Shown: positions 5,382 to 30,266 of the stretch, piece by piece
Layout: each line of letters opens with the position of its first letter
Numbering within the stretch: the first letter of the stretch is position 1
Origin: a virus
Direction: 5' to 3' (one strand)
DNA length: 30,856 nt
Virus record (IMG/VR): IMGVR_UViG_3300000116_000003
Span: 1 to 30,856 of that record
Notes under the pieces: generated by a model
Seen by the model: only the letters and a program-made list of their open reading frames with translations
The model's database searches: none
What the model was told of the DNA's origin: nothing
Program-made: the position numbers and the translations under genes

Positions 5382-7919
5382 TTATATAATTGTATAGTTG
5401 TTTGCTTCTGCTAATAGTCTAAAAGATTCGTAACCTTCGCCTGTTAGTCTTTCGAGTAAATCATTACTTAATGCTTCTTTAAATACTGCTACGCATTTTG
5501 TTTTGCTATGGAAATCTAACTGACCATCACCCCTATCAAATGCTAACTCATTTAAACCTGTTGGTAAATTAAAAGATGTAATAGTATTTCCTATTTGAGT
5601 ACCATCAACAAACATTTTAAATTCAGATGATTTATATGATATTGCAACTTTATAAAATTGCTTAAATTGTATGTTTGTAAAATCAATATCCTCAACTGAA
5701 CCACCACCTTTAATTTCTCCTCTAATTTTATTTGTATTGTTTAAATATATTATTTTGAGATAATTACTTGTTGAGCTATCTGAAGCTGTAATGTTTTGAT
5801 TATTTCCTACGTTTCCTTGAATAGCAATCTCTGCATATAGCACACCTTCACTATCATTAAACAAGTCAGCATTACCGCTATTATTTGCTTCCTCATCAGA
5901 GCGAGTTACTGTTGAACCGCTTGTTGGTATGTAGGAAGTTGGGTAGCTTCCTGCTTCTGCTTGAGCGCCCCAAATATACAATCCATCAGTATTATTAGAC
6001 ATTGCCCAATTTTCAAGCCAAGTAGCATTAGTTCCCGATACTAAAGAAATATAAAATGAATTATACCTATCATCTGAAGTAACACTTAATCTATACCATC
6101 CACTACCAAGTTCTTCAATTTTAGCATTAGAAAAATCAGACCCAACTGTTCCAACTAAACCATCTTGTAAATCAAAATTAACATATTGGTTTGTAGTATT
6201 TACCGATGCTATTTGTAAGTATCTTAATTCTTTTGCTTTTGCAAAAATACTATAAGAGCCATCAACAGTACCACTTAAAGTTTTTCTTATATGATGTCTT
6301 GACAAAATGGTGTTACCTTTTATTAAAGTAGCTTTATTATTACCGTCAGGACTTGTATCACTATCACTTTCAACTGTAACATCATCTTTTGCCCAAGATG
6401 AATTACTAAAATCTTCTGAATACGTTACAAGATTTGTACTCTGTGGCTCTAATAACAAACTGCCTGTACCATCTGTATAATCTATTCTTGGTAAGTCGGT
6501 ATCGTCTGTTACTTCCTTTATAGATACGTTATCTATTGTTAAGTCTGCATCATTTGTTGGTTTTAAGAATAAATCTGCACTCGTAGCAATAAAGTCCTCT
6601 GTTTTTGTGCCTACTGTACTGTAACTTGTAGGGCTGCTTTGTGATATGTTTTCAATACTTCCTGAAGATATTGATACAATATCAAATGTTAATCTATATT
6701 TACTACTTACTGTTAAAACATTTTCTTGGTATATAGTTCTATAAGCACTTACAGTACCGCTATAAACAGCGACACCATCTCCCATATTCCAACCATTTTG
6801 AAACTCCCAATTCTGTCCGACCTCTTTTACTGATACGTTGTCCCAAAACCCATAAGCACCATCATCATAAACATAAAGTCTTAATTGAGTTGATGTAGAT
6901 GTAGCTACAAAAGTAAAATCATAACTTCCGTCAGCATATAAGTTTCTAAATTGTGAGTCTGCATTTGTAAAAAACGCTAATCGACTTGAAGTACCAATAA
7001 AAGCATCTGCTGTTACTTTATATATCTTGCCAACCTCAGTAGTTATGTTTTGTGATGGATAACCACTCCCACCACTAATAGTTACCTTTAACCTGCCGCT
7101 ATCAATGCTTAGAGTTGCATTAGTGTTAGGTGTCCAATTTGTAGTTCCATTAGAAAAATTCCCATTAGTAACAAGTTCACTACCTATCTGCTCAAAGTCT
7201 CCGTTTTGTACAAGCTCTCCACTTAATATCTGTACGTCCTCTACAAGCCCTTGCTCGTTTACTCTTGTAGCACTTGAACCTCTACTAAAGTCAAAGTCGG
7301 CTTCTTGTATTTCTTTTACGCTTACATTGTCTAAATAAAATTCAGTATTTACACCTGCATATCTTGAAAAGTTTATGTCAGTATTTTGTTTTACAGCTAC
7401 TGTTTCTATTGTATAAGTACCACTTTGTGTATATTGTGATTGCACTGATGAATTTCCTGTATCTTTATAATAAACATTTACAGTGCCTTGAATTATATTT
7501 AAAGAAAAAGTGAATTTTAATTTTACACCAACAGGATTTGTTAATGTTTGAGATAATGGATTATGTGTTGAAGTTAAAGAAAAATAAGCACCTTGATTTG
7601 TCCACTGCCAATGATTGTTGGTATCAGTCCAACCACTTAAATCTGTGTCAAACGTACCATTAGTAACAAATTCAGTAGGCAAGACCTGATAAGGCGGTAT
7701 AACAGTATTTAAGCTACCATCTGAATATGCAGTAGGTGTTAAGACTATACTTGCTTTATTGTTTAAGTCTTTTAAGGTCGCATCTGTGCCATCTGAGTTC
7801 TCGTAATAATCAGAATGGTTATATAGCTTATTGGTCGCTGCGTGGTCATAGTACACATCGCCAAAGTCCTCAGCTTTACTTTCTCCCCAATCGCTTCTGT
7901 GATATATTTCGTTTGGCAT
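5382..7919 (-). CDS. Tail fibre / receptor-binding protein paralog 1 (core plus 3 N-terminal jelly-roll/CBM-like modules)
   Basis: Three modules each end in DNVS(V/I)KE(I/V): FYLDNVSVKEIQ, FWDNVSVKEVGQ and TIDNVSIKEVTD. The shared core follows (LLLEPQSTNLVTYSEDFS, GWYRLS, EGVLYAEIA, LamG-like C-terminus). Confidence 0.7.
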   Translation of the reverse strand: MPNEIYHRSDWGESKAEDFGDVYYDHAATNKLYNHSDYYENSDGTDATLKDLNNKASIVLTPTAYSDGSLNTVIPPYQVLPTEFVTNGTFDTDLSGWTDTNNHWQWTNQGAYFSLTSTHNPLSQTLTNPVGVKLKFTFSLNIIQGTVNVYYKDTGNSSVQSQYTQSGTYTIETVAVKQNTDINFSRYAGVNTEFYLDNVSVKEIQEADFDFSRGSSATRVNEQGLVEDVQILSGELVQNGDFEQIGSELVTNGNFSNGTTNWTPNTNATLSIDSGRLKVTISGGSGYPSQNITTEVGKIYKVTADAFIGTSSRLAFFTNADSQFRNLYADGSYDFTFVATSTSTQLRLYVYDDGAYGFWDNVSVKEVGQNWEFQNGWNMGDGVAVYSGTVSAYRTIYQENVLTVSSKYRLTFDIVSISSGSIENISQSSPTSYSTVGTKTEDFIATSADLFLKPTNDADLTIDNVSIKEVTDDTDLPRIDYTDGTGSLLLEPQSTNLVTYSEDFSNSSWAKDDVTVESDSDTSPDGNNKATLIKGNTILSRHHIRKTLSGTVDGSYSIFAKAKELRYLQIASVNTTNQYVNFDLQDGLVGTVGSDFSNAKIEELGSGWYRLSVTSDDRYNSFYISLVSGTNATWLENWAMSNNTDGLYIWGAQAEAGSYPTSYIPTSGSTVTRSDEEANNSGNADLFNDSEGVLYAEIAIQGNVGNNQNITASDSSTSNYLKIIYLNNTNKIRGEIKGGGSVEDIDFTNIQFKQFYKVAISYKSSEFKMFVDGTQIGNTITSFNLPTGLNELAFDRGDGQLDFHSKTKCVAVFKEALSNDLLERLTGEGYESFRLLAEANNYTII
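6406..6452. repeat. 47-nt near-identical segment shared with 4371..4417
   Basis: See 4371..4417. A second patch, agcaatctctgcatatagcacaccttc, is identical at 2539..2565 and 5823..5849. Confidence 0.85.
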
Positions 7920-21257: not shown

Positions 21258-21286
21258 TATATAACGTAAAAAAAAATGATTTTATC
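21258..21286 (-). promoter_or_regulatory. Phage-specific promoter motif copy: GATAAA-N13-ACGTTATATA
   Basis: 10-mer at 21258..21267. The hexamer tttatc at 21281..21286 overlaps the terL stop. The ATG at 21252 follows after 5 nt. Confidence 0.55.
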
Positions 21287-22493
21287 GAATTGCGTATTGA
21301 CCTCTGTTTGGGTTTTGCAGTTGGTATCCCACACTATAACGGATTGCATCAATAAGATGGCAATAAGCATCAACAGGTGTGTTTGACTTGCGCTCTAACC
21401 ACCTGTAATTATTCAGTTCTTTAATTAGGTTTGTACTATCAGGGCTTACTACTAAGTCGTAGTCTTGTAATAATGAGATACCATAGGTAACACTACCCTG
21501 CCCTTTGATTGATGGTTTTACATTACAACCTTTGGCTTTTATCTCGTGTATAAGTCTTGGCTCAGCACTATCGCCTACGATAAGCCCATCCTTAGCGTGT
21601 TTAAGGTTGAGTTGTGCTATCTGTGAGGTTGTGAGTCGTGGTAAGTAAAAACATTCCCTTAAATAAATTATTTTGTTATCTGTATCAATGTTTGTTTCTA
21701 CAAGTGTTGAGGGGTCTGCTGCAAATCCATAGTCTTGCCCCCATACGCTAACACCTTTCTTTTTAAACTCGCCAATAGTCCAATTATCAAATATCACGCC
21801 CTCAGCTTTAGCCATCCACGAGCCAAGCATTTGTTGTTTGTATTTCTCAGGTCTACGCTTTTGCATTTGCTCTATCTGTTCTATGTAGCTTTTAGATAGA
21901 TTGTTTAAGTTGTCTAAGTAGGTAGTGTGAATGTAGGTGGTGTTTTCTTTAGTTGTATTGCTACCTTCCTGAACCCCCTTATCCTCAAAGAATCTTGTAT
22001 AGACAAAATGCTCTTTGGTTGTAGGGTTGAGTATAAGGATAACTCTGTTTTGATTCCCTTGCTGTCTTACAGACAAGTCAATAGTATCAAACTTCTGTTC
22101 ATCTGTTAGTTCCTCTGCTTCATCTACCACCCACGTAGTGATACCTGTGAGTGATTTAAGACTTGCTGTCTGATCTCCTGAGCTTGTCTTGATACCCCTA
22201 AAGATTATCTTGCTCCCTGACTTTCTATTTATTATCTCGTCCTTTGTTACGTGGAAGTCTGCAATACAATCCATCAACTCTAACTTTTCTATAAACTCAG
22301 GGATGATAGAGATACGTGCAGATGTTAAAGTGTATCGTGTAAATAGGATTGTATGCCCTCGCTCATAGGTAAGTATAACAAGCAAAGCATTTATTGAGAA
22401 AGACTTACCTGAACCCCTACCACCTGTAACAACAAAGTATCTACTATCGTCGGTAGATATTGGTAGGTATTTCTTATGTATGTTAATCGACAA
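21282..22493 (-). CDS. terL: Terminase large subunit (PBSX/Terminase_3-like)
   Basis: Walker A VVTGGRGSGKSF, Walker B-like TWVVDEAEE, and a C-terminal nuclease-like region (VGDSAEP...HLIDAIRY). Confidence 0.9.
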   Translation of the reverse strand: MSINIHKKYLPISTDDSRYFVVTGGRGSGKSFSINALLVILTYERGHTILFTRYTLTSARISIIPEFIEKLELMDCIADFHVTKDEIINRKSGSKIIFRGIKTSSGDQTASLKSLTGITTWVVDEAEELTDEQKFDTIDLSVRQQGNQNRVILILNPTTKEHFVYTRFFEDKGVQEGSNTTKENTTYIHTTYLDNLNNLSKSYIEQIEQMQKRRPEKYKQQMLGSWMAKAEGVIFDNWTIGEFKKKGVSVWGQDYGFAADPSTLVETNIDTDNKIIYLRECFYLPRLTTSQIAQLNLKHAKDGLIVGDSAEPRLIHEIKAKGCNVKPSIKGQGSVTYGISLLQDYDLVVSPDSTNLIKELNNYRWLERKSNTPVDAYCHLIDAIRYSVGYQLQNPNRGQYAIR

Positions 22494-22737
22494 ACTTAAT
22501 TAAGTCCTTAAAGTTTATATTTAGCCCCTCAGATGAGTTGATATCCATACTCTCTTTTGGCTTACCATAACGATAGCTGAGATATAATTGTATTGCTCTC
22601 ATATCGCCTTTAGATACGAGTTCCCCTAACTTAGCGAGAGCTGTATCACTATCTATAATCGCATCTAAGCGTTCTACTAATTTAGATTCGTCTGCTTTAG
22701 GTTTTCTACCTGCGCCTTGTCTTGACCCTCCATGCAT
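22483..22737 (-). CDS. terS: Terminase small subunit (putative)
   Basis: 84 aa. The N-terminal GGSRQGAGRKPK motif is common in small terminases. Overlaps the terL start by 11 nt. Confidence 0.5.
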   Translation of the reverse strand: MHGGSRQGAGRKPKADESKLVERLDAIIDSDTALAKLGELVSKGDMRAIQLYLSYRYGKPKESMDINSSEGLNINFKDLIKFVD

Positions 22738-23139: not shown

Positions 23140-23224
23140 ATCCTTTTAAGTATCCTATAAACCAACAGAAGGCACAGAGTACTGCTGTTGTTAAGAACCC
23201 ACTAAAGTCCATATATAGTATCAT
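23120..23224 (-). CDS. 34-aa single-TM micro-ORF (MILYMDFSGFLTTAVLCAFCWFIGYLKGYEDGKK)
   Basis: Hand translation. ATGA overlap with the upstream ORF. Hydrophobic core. Confidence 0.35.
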   Translation of the reverse strand: MILYMDFSGFLTTAVLCAFCWFIGYLKGYEDGKK

Positions 23225-23355
23225 AATCGTTTGTATCTAAGGTCAGGTCTATCTTCATCACTAAAGTGTTCTATCATTCTATCACAATACCTTAATATCT
23301 TAGGATCATCGGTTGTTGTTTTCCAATGTTTGTAATATCGTATCATGTGTATCAT
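23221..23355 (-). CDS. 44-aa micro-ORF (MIHMIRYYKHWKTTTDDPKILRYCDRMIEHFSDEDRPDLRYKRL)
   Basis: Hand translation. TAATG overlap with the methyltransferase stop. Confidence 0.4.
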   Translation of the reverse strand: MIHMIRYYKHWKTTTDDPKILRYCDRMIEHFSDEDRPDLRYKRL

Positions 23356-23960
23356 TAGAATAGTCTTTGTTGTTGTTTATGTTGTTGTATTCGTTTCATG
23401 GCAGCTTCGTAATAGTCTTTGTCGAGTTCGCACCCTGTAAGCTCATATCCTAAATTATGACAAGCTATTGCTATTGAGCCACTACCTAAGTGGGTGTCGA
23501 GTATCTTGTCGTTTTCTTTGGCGTAATTCATAAGTAACCACTCATACAACTTAATTGGCTTTTGTGTAGGATGAAACCTTTGACTTCTGTCCATTGACAA
23601 ATGATGCTTATATGAACGTAAAGCTCTATTGAAAGATGTGAACGCAAGTTCGCCATCAGAAAAATCACTTGTACCATTCATCTTATCCCAATACACCCAA
23701 CCCATTGATGGCTTTTTTATTTTATCAATCATATAGTTTGCACCCCATATAATCTGATTCTTTGACACCCTAAATAGCTCGTCAAAAAATTCTTGTTTCG
23801 GAGTTTCACTATCCCATTGTTTGCCTTTGTTTTTATATTTTCCACTTCCTAATTGCATTTTATTTACCTCAATGCCATAAGGTGGGTCAACAATAGCAAG
23901 GTCGAAGTGGTTATTCTCATACCTTGCCATTAAACCCATACAGTCCTCGTTTGTTATCAT
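23355..23960 (-). CDS. DNA methyltransferase, beta-class N6_N4_Mtase (probably N6-adenine); no cognate endonuclease recognised
   Basis: Motif IV IVDPPYGI lies near the N-terminus and motif I LDTHLGSGSIAIAC near the C-terminus. Confidence 0.85.
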   Translation of the reverse strand: MITNEDCMGLMARYENNHFDLAIVDPPYGIEVNKMQLGSGKYKNKGKQWDSETPKQEFFDELFRVSKNQIIWGANYMIDKIKKPSMGWVYWDKMNGTSDFSDGELAFTSFNRALRSYKHHLSMDRSQRFHPTQKPIKLYEWLLMNYAKENDKILDTHLGSGSIAIACHNLGYELTGCELDKDYYEAAMKRIQQHKQQQRLF

Positions 23961-24430
23961 TCTACTGAGATTGCGTTTGCATCGTATATAGTCGCTTGTT
24001 GGTTTCTCGGTTGTATATCAAACCCTACCAACATAGCTTCTAAGCGTGTTTTAACGTCATCTCTGCGTTCCTCAGGTACTTGGTCTATAAGTGAGTACAA
24101 AGGGTTCTCTATTCGCTTCTTAATCATCTCTATTGGTTCGTCCTTTATATTGTAGAATATGTTATACACCTTATCAAAGTCTGCTTTGAAGTCTTTGTCT
24201 TGTTTGTAGTAATGGGTAAACCTATCTAAGTGATAGAGGACAGTTGCGTGGTTTTGCTTAAATGATTGTGAGATATGTCTTTTAATCACTTCTTGCTCTC
24301 TCATTATTCTATAAGCCATCATCCTACCCCTTACTGTTTTGTGCTTACGATTGTTCTCAGTTATATCTATACCTAAGTGTTCTTTGATGATTTTCTCTAA
24401 TCGTGTCTTAATGTCTTTTGTGTATGTCAT
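23957..24430 (-). CDS. DnaA domain-IV-like helix-turn-helix protein
   Basis: RKHKTVRGRMMAYRIMRE....ISQSFKQNHATVLYHLDRF...DKDFKADFDKV parallels E. coli DnaA R.[42 protein letters not shown]...DIKEDFSNL. Confidence 0.55.
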   Translation of the reverse strand: MTYTKDIKTRLEKIIKEHLGIDITENNRKHKTVRGRMMAYRIMREQEVIKRHISQSFKQNHATVLYHLDRFTHYYKQDKDFKADFDKVYNIFYNIKDEPIEMIKKRIENPLYSLIDQVPEERRDDVKTRLEAMLVGFDIQPRNQQATIYDANAISVE

Positions 24431-25266
24431 CTGATAGTGCTTAATTTATTTTTAACAAATTGATTGTAATATGTAACTACGTTATCCTTTGTGGTATTTA
24501 AGTATGGTGGCATACTTCTGTTAAGAAACAGAGAAAACTTAACCAACTCTTTTAACATCTTATCTACATTGTTTGTTTTGCGAATTACCTTATTAATGAT
24601 AACTGCTAAAGCACACTTAGTCAGCTTGTGTATCATTTTGTCCCACTCAAGATATTTGTTAATCTCATCTATGTAGGACGATTGCAATAGATAGTACAAT
24701 CTCAATCGTGTTGATGAATTGCTTTGTATTTTTGCGTTCCCTGTTCTAAAAGAATCGTTTGATGATTGAGTGAATAGCATCCTGATTGATGCGTGTGAGA
24801 ATACACCATTGATACCCATAGCTTCATCAAGTTGCTTAGGTGTTTCAGGGCTGTTGTATATCTTATTCCAAACAAACGTATAAAAGTTATCATTATCAAA
24901 AGGGTTCACACTTCGCTTAGTTGCGTGAAACCTTATATAGTCCTGTATCTGTAATGGCTTTCGTATGTTGTTAAGTGATAGAAAAACATCCTCAGGTTTT
25001 ACCTTTGTGTCGTTTGGCACTACAACAGCGTGTATCTCTTGCTCAGGCATCTTCTCAATTACAGAGCTTAACCTTTGGTATCCATCCTCTACTGAGTATA
25101 ACCCTTTGCGTATTTCATATAATGTTACTGCTGTTAAAAACCCATTCGCTTTGATTGAGTTGTTTAAGTTGCTTATGTGATGTTTCTCTTTCCATCTTTG
25201 ATGTAGGGGGATCGTTATTTGATTTTTTAAATCCCCTGCTTTAAATGTTCTTATCTCTGTTCTCAT
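24427..25266 (-). CDS. DUF262 / ParB-Srx superfamily protein (GmrS-type N-terminal domain only)
   Basis: IPLHQRW matches the DUF262 IPxFQRxYxW box. VEDGYQRLSSV matches the DGQQRLTT box. Confidence 0.6.
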   Translation of the reverse strand: MRTEIRTFKAGDLKNQITIPLHQRWKEKHHISNLNNSIKANGFLTAVTLYEIRKGLYSVEDGYQRLSSVIEKMPEQEIHAVVVPNDTKVKPEDVFLSLNNIRKPLQIQDYIRFHATKRSVNPFDNDNFYTFVWNKIYNSPETPKQLDEAMGINGVFSHASIRMLFTQSSNDSFRTGNAKIQSNSSTRLRLYYLLQSSYIDEINKYLEWDKMIHKLTKCALAVIINKVIRKTNNVDKMLKELVKFSLFLNRSMPPYLNTTKDNVVTYYNQFVKNKLSTIR

Positions 25267-25267
25267 G

Positions 25268-26041
25268 TTATAAAATTCCTGTTAAACAATAATTATCTAA
25301 ATCTGCACCATGTACAAAAAATGTTTCAAAAACTTCTATGGCTTCGTGTGTTTTTCTTTTACCCTCATTGTAAAACTCTTCTGATACATCGTATATCGCT
25401 ATGTCAAGAGTTCCTTTATCCATTACACCAAACTTAAACTCTGTGTAAGGTACGTTGAATAATTCACAATAAATATAGACTTGTATATCGTATCCGTATT
25501 TACGAGCTGAGTAAGGGAATCCTTTTATATCAGTTGTGGTCTTTAGGTCAACGATTTTGTTTTTACCTAATACATCTGCTTTTGCTCTAAAGGGATAACC
25601 ACCTATCATACCACAGGCAGGTACTTCAAACTCGCTATTGTCTAATAGTCTTAATGCCTGTTCGTTTCTTAGGAACGCATCAGATAACCTTTCAGCATCT
25701 CGTTTCTCTTTTTGTGTGAACACTTTACCATGCTCTGCTAATGCTTCCTTATACTTCTTTGTGTTCTTGCTTTGCACATCTACAAAGATCTGATCGTTAA
25801 ATACATCAGGTTCTAATATTGCTGTATGAAACAACCACCCATCTCTTAATGGTTGAGATTCAGGCGAACCATAGTCTGTAACAAACTTATACTTCTTTGG
25901 GCTTGTTGCAAGCATCTTGATTGATGATGAGCTTAGGGCTGCCTTAGCCATATACCCATAGTAAAAATCATCCTCTCTTAATAAATCTATGAGGGTGTCT
26001 TTCTTAAAGCGTTCCCCGTTTAGTAGTGTTATCTCGCTCAT
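25268..26041 (-). CDS. PD-(D/E)XK exonuclease (RecE/DUF3799- or Cas4/RecB-like)
   Basis: SSSSIKML..SPKKYKF and GWLFHTAILEPDVF fit the DUF3799 N-terminal pattern. Catalytic-like AKADV...IVDLKTT and QxxxY (DIQVYIY). Confidence 0.6.
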   Translation of the reverse strand: MSEITLLNGERFKKDTLIDLLREDDFYYGYMAKAALSSSSIKMLATSPKKYKFVTDYGSPESQPLRDGWLFHTAILEPDVFNDQIFVDVQSKNTKKYKEALAEHGKVFTQKEKRDAERLSDAFLRNEQALRLLDNSEFEVPACGMIGGYPFRAKADVLGKNKIVDLKTTTDIKGFPYSARKYGYDIQVYIYCELFNVPYTEFKFGVMDKGTLDIAIYDVSEEFYNEGKRKTHEAIEVFETFFVHGADLDNYCLTGIL

Positions 26042-26749: not shown

Positions 26750-26781
26750 TACAAATGTAATAAAAAAATGTTAATAAAGCA
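26750..26781 (-). promoter_or_regulatory. Bacteroidota sigma-A-type promoter (TTTG-N20-TACATTTG)
   Basis: On the coding strand, TTTG (26781..26778) and TAcaTTTG (26757..26750) match the published -33 TTTG / -7 TAnnTTTG consensus. Located in the gap after the stop at 26785. Confidence 0.5.
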
Positions 26782-26784
26782 AAT

Positions 26785-27423
26785 TCATATATTTAAATGC
26801 ATTATCGTATTAATCTTGTTTATTGTTTCTTGCTTATCTACAATCCCTTTATCATCGTAGTAAACATAAACGTAAGGGGCGAACATACGTGCGTAGTTAT
26901 CGTTCTTTTCTTTGTGGTTTGCCTTTGCTCTGTTTTGATAAGCTGTATTCATCATCTTGTATGAGATAGGTTTTATCTGTATCCCTAAGACAATGTAATC
27001 ATCTTTTATAACCTCAGCATCTATGCAGTAAGTGTGGTCTTTCTCAAAGTCTGTTTTAACTATATCTATATTGGTAAACTCTGCTTTGAGTTCGTCTATT
27101 ATAGTTAGTTCCTGTTGGTATCCGTTCCACGTCTGTCCTATCACACGGTAGAAAACATACTGCTTTATATCTTCCATTGATACCCATTGATTCTTTAAAT
27201 GTATCCTTTGGCTTACATAGGATAGCTGTTTAAAACCTACTGAGCATTTATACGAGTGTTCCCAATCTTTATGCGTTTTGCTTTCGTGGTGCTTATAGAA
27301 GTCGCTTATGAGCTTCATACACTTACCTACATATTTAGTCTGAAAAAAATGATTGACACTCTTGTCTTTGTTTAGCTTTCTGTACAGGGCATCGTCTAAT
27401 GGTTGCTTATACTTATAAGGCAT
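26785..27423 (-). CDS. Putative PD-(D/E)XK-fold nuclease-like protein
   Basis: TIIDELK ... YCIDAEV ... LGIQIKP fits an E...D-x(n)-Q-x-K arrangement. No family confidently recognised. Confidence 0.35.
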   Translation of the reverse strand: MPYKYKQPLDDALYRKLNKDKSVNHFFQTKYVGKCMKLISDFYKHHESKTHKDWEHSYKCSVGFKQLSYVSQRIHLKNQWVSMEDIKQYVFYRVIGQTWNGYQQELTIIDELKAEFTNIDIVKTDFEKDHTYCIDAEVIKDDYIVLGIQIKPISYKMMNTAYQNRAKANHKEKNDNYARMFAPYVYVYYDDKGIVDKQETINKINTIMHLNI

Positions 27424-27751: not shown

Positions 27752-28249
27752 CTAATCCCATTCTATATTATTTTTAATTAAATCCTTAACTCTTTTGTAT
27801 GTAAAGTACAGAGAATAATAAGATATGTTTGTCTTACGTGCCAACTCTGCAATAGACATCCCACCACTAATTATTTCAAACACAGTCCTATCATACCAAA
27901 AAGTTTTATCGAGTAGATTATCCATTTGCTTCATAGCATCGCAAACATCTATCTCTTTTGATTCGCCCTGATCATCTAAATAGTCAGCAAGGTTATCAAT
28001 GTTAGTCTTAATGATTTTTTTCTCTTTTCGATGCAAGTCTATAAACAAAGCCCTAAGAGTTCGGTAGATGTACATATGATTAATATCATCCTTAAAAGAT
28101 ATATCTACACCCTTTGTAATGAGAGTGTGCATACGGATATACATTTCTTGGACTAAATCTTCAGCGATAGATTCTTTGCACCCAAAGGATAACACTATCC
28201 TGTGCCAATCATCGTGCTTCTCTGCAATCTTTTCAAGTGTGGTTTTCAA
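27752..28249 (-). CDS. ECF-like RNA polymerase sigma factor
   Basis: Region-2-like IAEDLVQEMYIRMH and YIYRTLRALFIDLHRKEKK. Region-4 HTH-like FWYDRTVFEIISGGMSIAELARKTNISYYSLYFTYKRVKDLIK. Apparent TTG start overlapping the helicase stop (TTTTGA). Confidence 0.7.
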   Translation of the reverse strand: MKTTLEKIAEKHDDWHRIVLSFGCKESIAEDLVQEMYIRMHTLITKGVDISFKDDINHMYIYRTLRALFIDLHRKEKKIIKTNIDNLADYLDDQGESKEIDVCDAMKQMDNLLDKTFWYDRTVFEIISGGMSIAELARKTNISYYSLYFTYKRVKDLIKNNIEWD

Positions 28250-29166: not shown

Positions 29167-29191
29167 TAAAAAAAAGGGGCTGTAAAGCCCC
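29167..29191 (-). terminator. Rho-independent terminator after the SSB-like gene
   Basis: Minus-strand RNA: GGGGCU-UUAC-AGCCCC followed by U9 (29175..29167). Confidence 0.75.
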
Positions 29192-29197
29192 CTATGA

Positions 29198-30193: not shown

Positions 30194-30219
30194 TAAAAAA
30201 AGGGGGCAAAGCACCCCCC
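30194..30219 (-). terminator. Rho-independent terminator after the NinG-like gene
   Basis: Minus-strand RNA: GGGGG(G)-UGCUUUG-CCCCC followed by U8. Confidence 0.7.
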
Positions 30220-30266
30220 TTAATCATAACATTAAAACAGTACAGGATATGTACTCTGCAAATATA

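Follow-up and report, generated by a model that had tools for sequence, protein, structure and literature searches.

The subject of this study is a run of three consecutive genes, here called p1, p2 and p3, in a stretch of viral DNA held in IMG/VR as record IMGVR_UViG_3300000116_000003 (positions 1 to 30,856). The whole stretch, which we call the window, is 30,856 nucleotides (nt) long with a G+C content of about 35%; it is a compact segment of a phage genome, with 43 of its 46 greedily picked open reading frames (ORFs) on the minus strand. A previous, sequence-only reading of this DNA had described p1 as a DUF262 protein without the nuclease half of its relatives, p2 as a stand-alone relative of domain IV of DnaA, and p3 as a beta-class DNA methyltransferase (MTase), all joined by ATGA stop/start overlaps and preceded, at a distance of 1 nt, by a RecE-type nuclease. 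Inspection of the sequence bears out this layout. The three ORFs lie as listed in Table 1, the overlaps fall at 24427-24430 (p1/p2) and 23957-23960 (p2/p3), and the upstream gene is a DUF3799/PD-(D/E)XK exonuclease whose TAA stop, at 25268-25270, is one base before the p1 ATG. The motifs quoted for the three proteins are all present as well. Homologs of each gene are under purifying selection, the ratio of nonsynonymous to synonymous substitution rates (dN/dS) being 0.04-0.10 for p1, 0.09-0.14 for p2 and 0.05-0.32 for p3, and p1, p2 and p3 are thus real genes.

Table 1. Features of the window in and around the p1-p2-p3 locus
Feature	Coordinates	Strand	Length	Matches and remarks
Terminase large subunit (TerL)	21282..22493	minus		PF04466 7e-32; PF17288 3.8e-18; phrog_3717, phrog_2; downstream boundary of the locus
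84-residue gene	22483..22737	minus	84 aa	phrog_38011 (function unknown); small-terminase position
44-residue ORF	23221..23355	minus	44 aa	ATG overlaps the MTase stop (TAATG at 23355)
p3, beta-class MTase	23355-23960	minus	201 aa
p2, DnaA-domain-IV-like protein	23957-24430	minus	157 aa
p2 C-terminal tail	23957-24010	minus		residues ~140-157
p1, ParB/Srx-fold, DUF262/DGQHR-like protein	24427-25266	minus	279 aa
DUF3799/PD-(D/E)XK exonuclease, RecE/exoVIII-like	25268..26041	minus		PF12684 3.7e-17; phrog_412 'exonuclease VIII' 1.5e-33
Candidate Bacteroidetes-type promoter	26752..26783	minus		TTTG-N-TAnnTTTG; weak; in an intergenic gap of 118 nt ahead of the block with the trio
MjaI-like endonuclease	26785-27423	minus		PF09568 3.3e-9; PADLOC REase_II 1.5e-9
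Sigma-70 region-2-like protein with a C-terminal HTH	27752-28249	minus		PF04542 3e-5; phrog_1740 'RNA polymerase sigma factor' 1.7e-5
Intrinsic-terminator-like hairpin	29174-29193	minus		strong; G/C-rich stem followed by a T-run
Intrinsic-terminator-like hairpin	30198-30221	minus		strong; G/C-rich stem followed by a T-run

Taken alone, the p1 protein has no match in Pfam (even at E <= 1), NCBIfam or PADLOC, and its identity emerges from motifs and from relatives. The protein consists of an N-terminal domain of about residues 1-115 plus a C-terminal half, alpha-helical, whose family is unknown. The former carries IPLHQRW (residues 19-25) and VEDGYQRLSSV (residues 59-69), which contain most of a DUF262/DGQHR signature made up of Q23-R24, E60-D61-G-Y-Q-R65 (where Y replaces the first Q) and F95-LSL-N99; the DUF262 signature has been defined as a QR pair, (I/V)DGQ(Q/H)R and FxxxN (PMC4619093). 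In an alignment of 16 family members Q23, R24 and F95 are conserved at 90% or more, and G62 and N99 are invariant. The window protein matches the 'ParB-like' profile phrog_1033 at 2.5e-6; nine of the 16 members match PF03235 (GmrSD_N/DUF262) weakly (best 7.7e-6) and eight match PF02195 (ParB_N; best 3e-6). A profile of the family finds the N-terminal domains of Noc and ParB in the PDB at 5e-10 to 2e-9, and a Foldseek search with an AlphaFold2 (AF2) model of p1 returned solely ParB/Srx folds; the model was built from four sequences and is of low confidence, with a predicted local distance difference test (pLDDT) score of 55. Together, these motif, profile and model results place p1 in the ParB/Srx superfamily, in a DUF262/DGQHR-like branch. 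The DUF262 label of the sequence-only reading appears essentially right in its signature motifs and its fold, but it comes from motifs and transitive profile evidence: no model matches the window protein directly, and the PF03235 matches of its family are weak. The same reading was correct that the DUF1524/HNH half is missing, as Pfam, NCBIfam and PADLOC found none in the C-terminal half of p1 or in the neighbouring genes. Nor does p1 look like a canonical partition ParB, since its match to ParB is limited to the N-terminal domain, the window holds no ParA, and no parS-like repeat arrays occur between 22.4 and 30.9 kb.

The p1 family is rare. An exhaustive HMMER search of 1.84e9 proteins returned 15 representatives, and a word search five clusters at 90% identity; a 252-residue protein, 'ParB252', could be joined to the family by hhalign (89% probability, E = 2e-6). 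Searching 50,697 phage genomes by tblastn with p1, p2 and one distant ParB-like protein gave no matches, as did scans of viral contigs with P0025 and P0027. The cluster P0002, 87% identical to p1, carries the name 'flagellar biosynthesis regulator FlbT' from JGI, which is almost certainly a mis-annotation; its sole support is one family member that matches PF07378 at E = 0.015. A gene pair of Cellulophaga phage Nekkels_1, gp88/gp89, was considered as a cultured p1/p2 pair on account of its same sizes and same place upstream of an MTase, but the proteins are not homologous.

The identity of p3 is unambiguous at the level of sequence comparison: it is a beta-class N6-adenine/N4-cytosine DNA methyltransferase, as had been read from its DPPY motif. 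The protein scores 67.4 bits against PF01555 (2.3e-18; cut-off 26.7), 3.5e-41 against phrog_67 and 9e-43 against PADLOC MTase_II, and its elements follow the order motif IV (DPPY, residues 25-28), target recognition domain, motif I (DTHLGSGS, the S-adenosylmethionine motif, residues 155-162). The closest relatives of solved structure are DpnA, MboIIA and CcrM. When MTase alleles of very different phages are aligned (alignment A6), their ends (residues 1-30 and 130-201) are nearly identical, and about 100 residues in the centre are hypervariable. The window MTase is 80% identical to the allele of locus L037, where the ParB-like genes of the two phages share just 39%. Moreover, dN reaches 0.18-0.27 for the MTase where the flanking genes give 0.01-0.05, which argues that p3 has been replaced independently of its flanks. 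It looks like a swappable allele cassette, in which target recognition may be exchanged by recombination between the conserved ends. The site that p3 would methylate, like the one that p2 would bind, we infer rather than observe. As a nuclease with which p3 might form a restriction-modification pair, only the MjaI-like gene, located 2.8 kb upstream, came into question, and this candidate was rejected. The gene is conserved in sibling phages that have no MTase, so the two do not form a pair and the label 'orphan' stands; in addition, the genome has no copy of CTAG, the site expected for the nuclease, which leaves nothing for the MTase to protect.

For p2, the likeness to domain IV of DnaA seen in the sequence-only reading is essentially right as judged by profiles and predicted fold. 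The protein is composed of a helix-turn-helix (HTH) domain at about residues 15-90, a helical region and a disordered tail specific to its clade, and the motif NHATVLYHLDRF, which had drawn attention to it, lies at residues 60-71. Alone it reaches 21.1 bits against PF08299 (Bac_DnaA_C; E = 3e-4), which falls short of the gathering threshold of 31.5 bits; each of the 12 family members in the alignment matches this model (best 9.6e-10). The best PDB match of the family profile is domain IV of E. coli DnaA (1J1V, 2e-4). The AF2 model of p2 has a pLDDT above 90 over residues 10-100, and the top Foldseek matches are the DnaA-domain-IV/DNA complexes 1J1V (template modelling score, TM, 0.81; root-mean-square deviation 1.6 A) and 3PVP. 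With its 157 residues p2 covers positions 365-435 of the 437 in the DnaA equivalog TIGR00362; it lacks the AAA+ domain III, as noted before, together with domains I and II, and is not a full DnaA initiator. In the 1J1V complex, the bases of the DnaA box are contacted by R399, P423, D433, H434, T435 and H439. By profile alignment R399 and H434 are kept in p2 as R28 and H61, both invariant in the family, and four contacts are substituted (D433 by N60, T435 by A62, H439 by Y66, P423 by R51). Binding of p2 to DnaA boxes was considered and finds no support in the phage genome: the 9-mer TTATCCACA occurs there 11 times with at most one mismatch against 9.1 expected, and never exactly.

The tail of p2, I(Q/K/R)PRNQQATIY, is near-invariant and predicted to be disordered. 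It is common to the clade of the window and a sister clade, including phages without a ParB-like gene, and distant homologs carry other tails. As a motif for binding p1 it was rejected, being kept in four p1-less loci (L007-L010) and missing from distant p2 homologs that sit beside p1. Its QATIY core bears a loose and speculative resemblance to the sliding-clamp-binding pentapeptide Qxx(L/I)(F/Y). Relatives of p2 annotated 'DnaA C-terminal' are numerous in BFVD, and small stand-alone proteins of this kind are encoded by cultured phages, namely gp40 of Cellulophaga phage phi46:1 and gp026 of Flavobacterium phage tooticki. In both, the p2-type gene lies in the replication region, and neither a ParB-like nor a Mom gene is close to it. 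Most likely, p2 belongs to the replication/recombination module as an independent protein that binds DNA at specific sequences, and it could plausibly serve as origin binder or early-to-late regulator.

Whether the three genes belong together was addressed at 85 loci that hold a member of the p1 family, ParB252 included. Neighbours were classed by custom hidden Markov models, and the gene following the ParB-like gene was counted as next if it started within 60 nt. That next gene encodes a protein of the Mom family (PF25680) in 56 of the 85 loci, a p2-type (DnaA_C-like) protein in 13 (the window, its clade and L065) and an MTase in two; in another five neither is next, but Mom or an MTase lies immediately upstream. 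The canonical order runs from the DUF3799 exonuclease through the ParB-like gene, an overlapping mom gene, a few small ORFs, the DnaA_C-like gene (in some loci overlapped by an MTase) and a gene of about 83 residues to TerL. The presence of p1 tracks that of a DNA-modifying enzyme, Mom or an MTase being found on the same contig at 79 of the 85 loci. Among the remaining six, three (L030-L032) have no sequence downstream of the ParB-like gene, and in L015 the contig ends within an upstream MTase, of which 28 residues are left. In most loci p1 is paired with Mom and there is no MTase; both enzymes are present in 11. The adjacency of ParB and Mom persists down to about 20% identity in p1, and it outlasts a change of the upstream neighbour to something other than the exonuclease as well as inversion of the order (L033, L054, L083, L089-L091). 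Compared with Mu Mom (8BV8), the linked Mom is a close homolog over its full length (E = 6e-63), and Mom-family genes are widespread among the marine phage contigs of this survey (L005, L006, L028, L029, L033-L036, L041-L092). The DnaA_C-like gene is nearly constant, occurring in 46 of the 48 loci where a ParB-like gene and TerL are both present.

The synteny of the trio, a point on which the sequence-only reading had staked its case, was found in 13 further loci, 12 of them close relatives and one divergent (L065). The families also meet in distant phages, and in different orders: ParB, MTase, x, DnaA_C in the L037 type, MTase, ParB, DnaA_C in the L011 type, and the order seen in the window. 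The trio recurs in this way, but the parts are separable. Within the clade of the window alone three states can be seen: ParB-like, DnaA_C and MTase in the window and 12 further members; ParB-like, Mom and DnaA_C with no MTase in L028, and partially in L005, L006 and L029; and DnaA_C without any of the ParB-like, Mom or MTase genes in L007-L010, which share 86% (exonuclease) and 91% (TerL) identity with the window. The separability of the parts across loci indicates two units: a ParB-like gene with a modification enzyme, and an independent, near-constant HTH gene. In this phage group the DnaA_C-like gene counts as a core gene in its own right. The overlaps of start and stop codons do not speak for a closer union. 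Overlapping junctions make up 17 of the 42 consecutive gene pairs in the window (about 40%), five of them by 4 nt, and the coupling of p1, p2 and p3 is real yet not distinctive in this phage. The proposal of an undescribed three-component system was not upheld, given that p2 persists alone, that the usual neighbour of p1 is Mom, and that the combination of ParB, modification and terminase genes is already in print (PMC4738411, PMC13229309).

The published loci closest to ours are the ParB-Terminase large subunit (ParB-Tls) modification loci of phages and prophages, which include MTases and were described by Iyer, Zhang, Burroughs and Aravind in 2013, as recounted in PMC4738411; the Aravind group predicted that the loci modify DNA during packaging. 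With p1, p3 and TerL within 4 kb, the window fits the descriptive definition of such a locus, an arrangement that comes back in the 48 loci with both ParB-like and TerL genes. It departs from the loci as recounted in PMC4738411 in its ParB-like protein, of a rare and divergent DUF262/DGQHR type, in the usual partner of that protein, which is Mom, and in the near-constant gene for a DnaA-domain-IV HTH protein. A second point of comparison is the phage thymine dioxygenase 5mYOX176, which has been shown experimentally to be activated by ParB176 on double-stranded DNA (PMC13229309). As in our loci, a ParB-fold protein with no obvious DNA-binding domain sits beside a post-replicative modifier, and terminases often co-occur. 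The enzymes differ, however: an iron/2-oxoglutarate (Fe/2OG) dioxygenase in that system, Mom (of GNAT type) or a beta-class MTase in ours. So do the ParB branches, PF02195 in ParB176 against DUF262-like in p1, and what is known of our pair is adjacency alone, with a mirror-tree correlation of r = 0.23.

The likeness extends, at various distances, to other ParB-fold proteins. DpdA is assisted by the ATPase DpdB, which has a ParB fold (PMC10164549); DpdB and DndB belong to the Dpd 7-deazaguanine and Dnd systems, which are made of larger proteins in bacterial defence islands, unlike the phage-borne p1. p1 has DGYQR and other members of its family DGNHL-R, and DpdB and DndB match at the superfamily level only. 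The GmrS/DUF262 part of GmrSD shares with p1 the QR pair, DG-x-Q-R, FxxxN and the ParB/Srx fold (PMC4619093), but p1 has no GmrD/DUF1524 HNH half and no PF03235 score, and its context is one of modification, not restriction. A ParB-like domain and a beta-class N6/N4 MTase are found in one polypeptide in the ParB_N-MTase fusions Met1 and Met2 of Wolbachia phage WO (PMC3089641). p3 matches positions 126-351 of the 743-position profile phrog_67, which has this fused architecture; the window, by contrast, encodes them in distinct genes that are set apart by a third. As for p2, it shares with DnaA domain IV the fold and has equivalents of R399 and H434, the other four contacts being substituted; it differs further in its clade-specific tail, in the absence of the other DnaA domains and in that its phage genome is not enriched in DnaA boxes.

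Control of mom in phage Mu involves Com, Dam and OxyR, and Mu is not known to have a ParB-like partner for Mom. In the sibling phages, a homolog of Mu Mom (8BV8; PMC13219725, PMC7261163) occupies the slot directly after the p1 ortholog. This slot is empty in the window, where p3 is the only modification enzyme. The window is accordingly best read as a marine Flavobacteriia-type siphophage version of the described ParB-terminase loci with its Mom slot empty, rather than as a new three-part system.

On this basis we favor, with a probability of roughly 0.55, the view that the locus is a DNA-modification segment in which a unit of ParB-like protein and modification enzyme is interleaved with an independent DnaA_C-type gene, and that p1 aids modification. 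The segment lies between the recombination exonuclease and the terminase and would be transcribed within one long operon. p1, with a ParB/Srx-fold NTPase-type domain and a helical C-terminal domain, may serve as an accessory that loads onto DNA, or activates or regulates the enzyme, and in this way could assist, target or regulate the modification of adenines in phage DNA after replication. The Mom-type enzyme encoded directly downstream is its usual partner and would be the ancestral one, and p2 would stand apart from the modification unit and not act as a reader of the methyl mark. The modification may shield the phage genome from host restriction, possibly in coordination with packaging. 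That p1 assists modification is suggested by analogy with the precedents of DpdB and DpdA, the ParB-activated thymine dioxygenases and the ParB-Tls loci (PMC4738411); p1 is also kept by selection where Mom is missing (dN/dS 0.04-0.10).

Several observations weigh against this view. Mu Mom is active by itself in E. coli (PMC13219725), and because the linked Mom is like full-length Mu Mom, p1 may be dispensable for Mom catalysis. In the window itself p2 lies between p1 and the MTase, and Mom, the presumed main partner of p1, is absent, so that the role of p1 there is reached indirectly. Many of the 85 loci are phylogenetically related, which brings the number of independent events well below 85, and two of them (L040 and L093) are genuine exceptions that have a ParB-like gene with no recognizable modification gene. 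The distance correlation of the ParB-like protein with Mom (r = 0.23) lends no support to co-evolution; the ParB-like protein gives 0.76 when paired with the exonuclease and 0.67 when paired with p2. The p1 model is poor (pLDDT 55) and the C-terminal domain uncharacterized. Lastly, the DnaA_C-like gene and the MTase are adjacent or overlapping in 21 loci, which we attribute to an insertion hot-spot, but which could reflect a functional link.

Such a link is at the heart of the integrated DNA-marking system envisaged in the sequence-only reading, in which the MTase would write a mark, the DnaA-type HTH protein would give or read the specificity, and a DUF262-like NTPase/nickase would act on marked or unmarked DNA, with replication control, superinfection exclusion or anti-defence as the outcome. 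Besides those 21 junctions, the contiguity and overlap of the trio in the window and 13 further loci and the meeting of the three families in distant phages in three gene orders can be cited in its favor, and since p1 has no obvious HTH, specificity supplied in trans is conceivable, in the manner of KorB-KorA cited in PMC13229309. It is hard to reconcile, however, with the retention of p2 and its conserved tail in L007-L010, which have no p1, MTase or Mom, or with cultured phages that hold p2 with neither partner; p1 is found mostly with Mom and no MTase, overlapping junctions are the norm throughout the genome, no PADLOC defence-system model matches p1 or p2, and p1 has no nuclease domain. 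We regard the integrated system as quite improbable. A different function for p1, that of an anti-restriction decoy, is unlikely. As a nuclease-less DUF262-like protein it would poison or titrate host Type IV enzymes (GmrSD, SspE, BrxU-like) that would otherwise attack the Mom- or methyl-modified phage DNA. The DUF262/DGQHR motifs (as defined in PMC4619093) without an HNH/DUF1524 half are what one would look for in such a protein; p1 is present alongside modification genes and absent together with them in L007-L010, as predicted for a counter-measure tied to modified DNA. The weak co-evolution of p1 and Mom would also fit a protein that does not touch Mom. We know of no precedent for a DUF262 decoy, and a start/stop overlap with Mom kept across a divergence to about 20% identity is more typical of subunits or accessories. 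The precedents established by experiment, moreover, are of ParB-fold proteins aiding modification enzymes (PMC13229309, PMC10164549).

It may also be, though this too is unlikely, that the adjacency is incidental, p1 being a ParB-like nuclease or partition-type protein that serves recombination, replication or packaging, such as together with the RecE-like exonuclease or with the terminase, and Mom and the MTase being morons in a hot-spot. The region before the terminase genes is a known hot-spot for accessory genes, and mobility as a cassette is evident for the MTase. p1 starts 1 nt after the exonuclease gene and co-evolves with it (r = 0.76) far better than with Mom. What makes us doubt this explanation is that L007-L010 keep the exonuclease without p1, and that the ParB-Mom pair persists with another upstream neighbour or in inverted order, that a modification gene co-occurs at 79 of 85 loci, and that neither ParA in the window nor parS-like repeats between 22.4 and 30.9 kb were found. 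The view that p1 is an accessory of the modification enzyme has, in turn, a bolder form, which we consider a long shot: the p1 family would be an unrecognized, widespread partner of Mom-type adenine hypermodification, acting as a ParB-fold clamp or activator on double-stranded DNA, with p2 supplying the specificity for the loading site in trans. p1 would then cause Mom, or the beta-class MTases where Mom has been replaced, to act on duplex phage DNA or would direct them there, and a KorB/KorA-like arrangement of p1 and p2 could nucleate modification at a defined site beside the packaging genes.

The genes around the trio give some idea of the operon to which it would belong. The cassette is bounded upstream by the exonuclease gene, which is conserved in its place before the ParB-like gene in most loci. 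Downstream of p3, the 44-residue ORF is kept at 52-95% identity in sibling loci, even in those without the MTase. The 84-residue gene that follows overlaps the start of TerL by 11 nt and is kept at 84-99% identity; a Pfam scan assigned it to no family, and it has the motif GGSRQGAGRKPK at its N-terminus. A scan of the minus strand from about 26.75 kb to the terminase genes found no terminator. For promoters of the sigma-70 type, 36 sites in the window against 39 expected amount to no enrichment; the Bacteroidetes-type motif has five matches against 2.3 expected, and the candidate upstream of the block of the trio is intergenic. The early region encodes NinG/Rap, an SSB-like protein, a DnaB-like helicase and the sigma-like factor, which is conserved among sibling phages. 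Domain scans recognized no replication initiator in that region and no ParA in the window, and no iteron-like or parS-like repeat arrays occur between 22.4 and 30.9 kb. The two hairpins listed in Table 1 lie on the coding strand and bracket a block of SSB-like, 120-residue and 60-residue genes in the early region. In some siblings a second beta-class MTase is located between the DnaB-like helicase and sigma-like genes (L004, about 6231-6874; L011, 1096-1710; L024, 2260-2874); the window has none, and the two genes overlap directly at 28246-28249. In L004, a close relative of the window on a pilon-polished contig from ENA (ERZ28548087), the MTase, MjaI-like, sigma-like and p2 genes are fragmented, and the p1 ortholog contains about 35 scrambled residues, which is consistent with frameshift errors of long-read assembly and not with real pseudogenes.

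The MjaI-like gene would give the phage a restriction enzyme of its own. MjaI recognizes and cuts CTAG. This tetranucleotide does not occur in the window, where about 85 copies are expected, and the same holds for all 17 contigs with an MjaI-like gene among the loci retrieved (the window, L004, L007-L009, L017, L018, L020-L025, L027, L028, L030 and L031), in which 184 kb contain none against 525 expected. The 79 contigs without the gene have 901 copies against 1397 expected in 484 kb. No cognate MTase for the nuclease is evident. These counts suggest that the phage may use a solo restriction enzyme against its host and protect itself by avoiding the site. Other short palindromes are affected as well: CGCG (20 expected), GGCC (17), CCGG (4.4), AAGCTT and CTATAG (each about 7-8) are all missing from the window, and GATC (21 against 112 expected) and CATG (20 against 77) are depleted, which points to a strong pressure for restriction avoidance.

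Part of what the locus contains is already known. p3 belongs to the ordinary orphan MTases of phages, and annotations of cultured Flavobacteriia phages already include DnaA_C proteins that stand alone. What appears to be new is a rare ParB family of DUF262-like type, the all but obligate placement of its genes beside Mom, and a DnaA_C gene that is constant across these loci. As to the second of these, the 2026 paper on Mom makes no mention of ParB, and no Mom-ParB link was found in the literature searched, which excluded the primary descriptions of the ParB-Tls loci (Nucleic Acids Research 2013, Cell Cycle 2009). The activation of a phage DNA-modifying enzyme by a ParB-fold protein was itself demonstrated experimentally only recently (PNAS 2026), and the locus family described here adds a second, unrelated class of enzymes, Mom, beside which ParB-fold proteins are encoded. 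For annotation, the DnaA_C-like gene should be regarded as an independent core gene and the MTase as a swappable specificity cassette. If the functional link of p1 and Mom is true, these phages would offer a simple two-gene system for learning how ParB-fold proteins help enzymes on duplex DNA, and the view that a single enzyme suffices for momylation would need qualifying. Should p1 even act as a clamp or activator with p2 as its guide, Mom proteins would fall into 'ParB-dependent' and 'ParB-independent' subclasses, in parallel to the thymine dioxygenases, and the stand-alone DnaA_C proteins of phages would gain a function.

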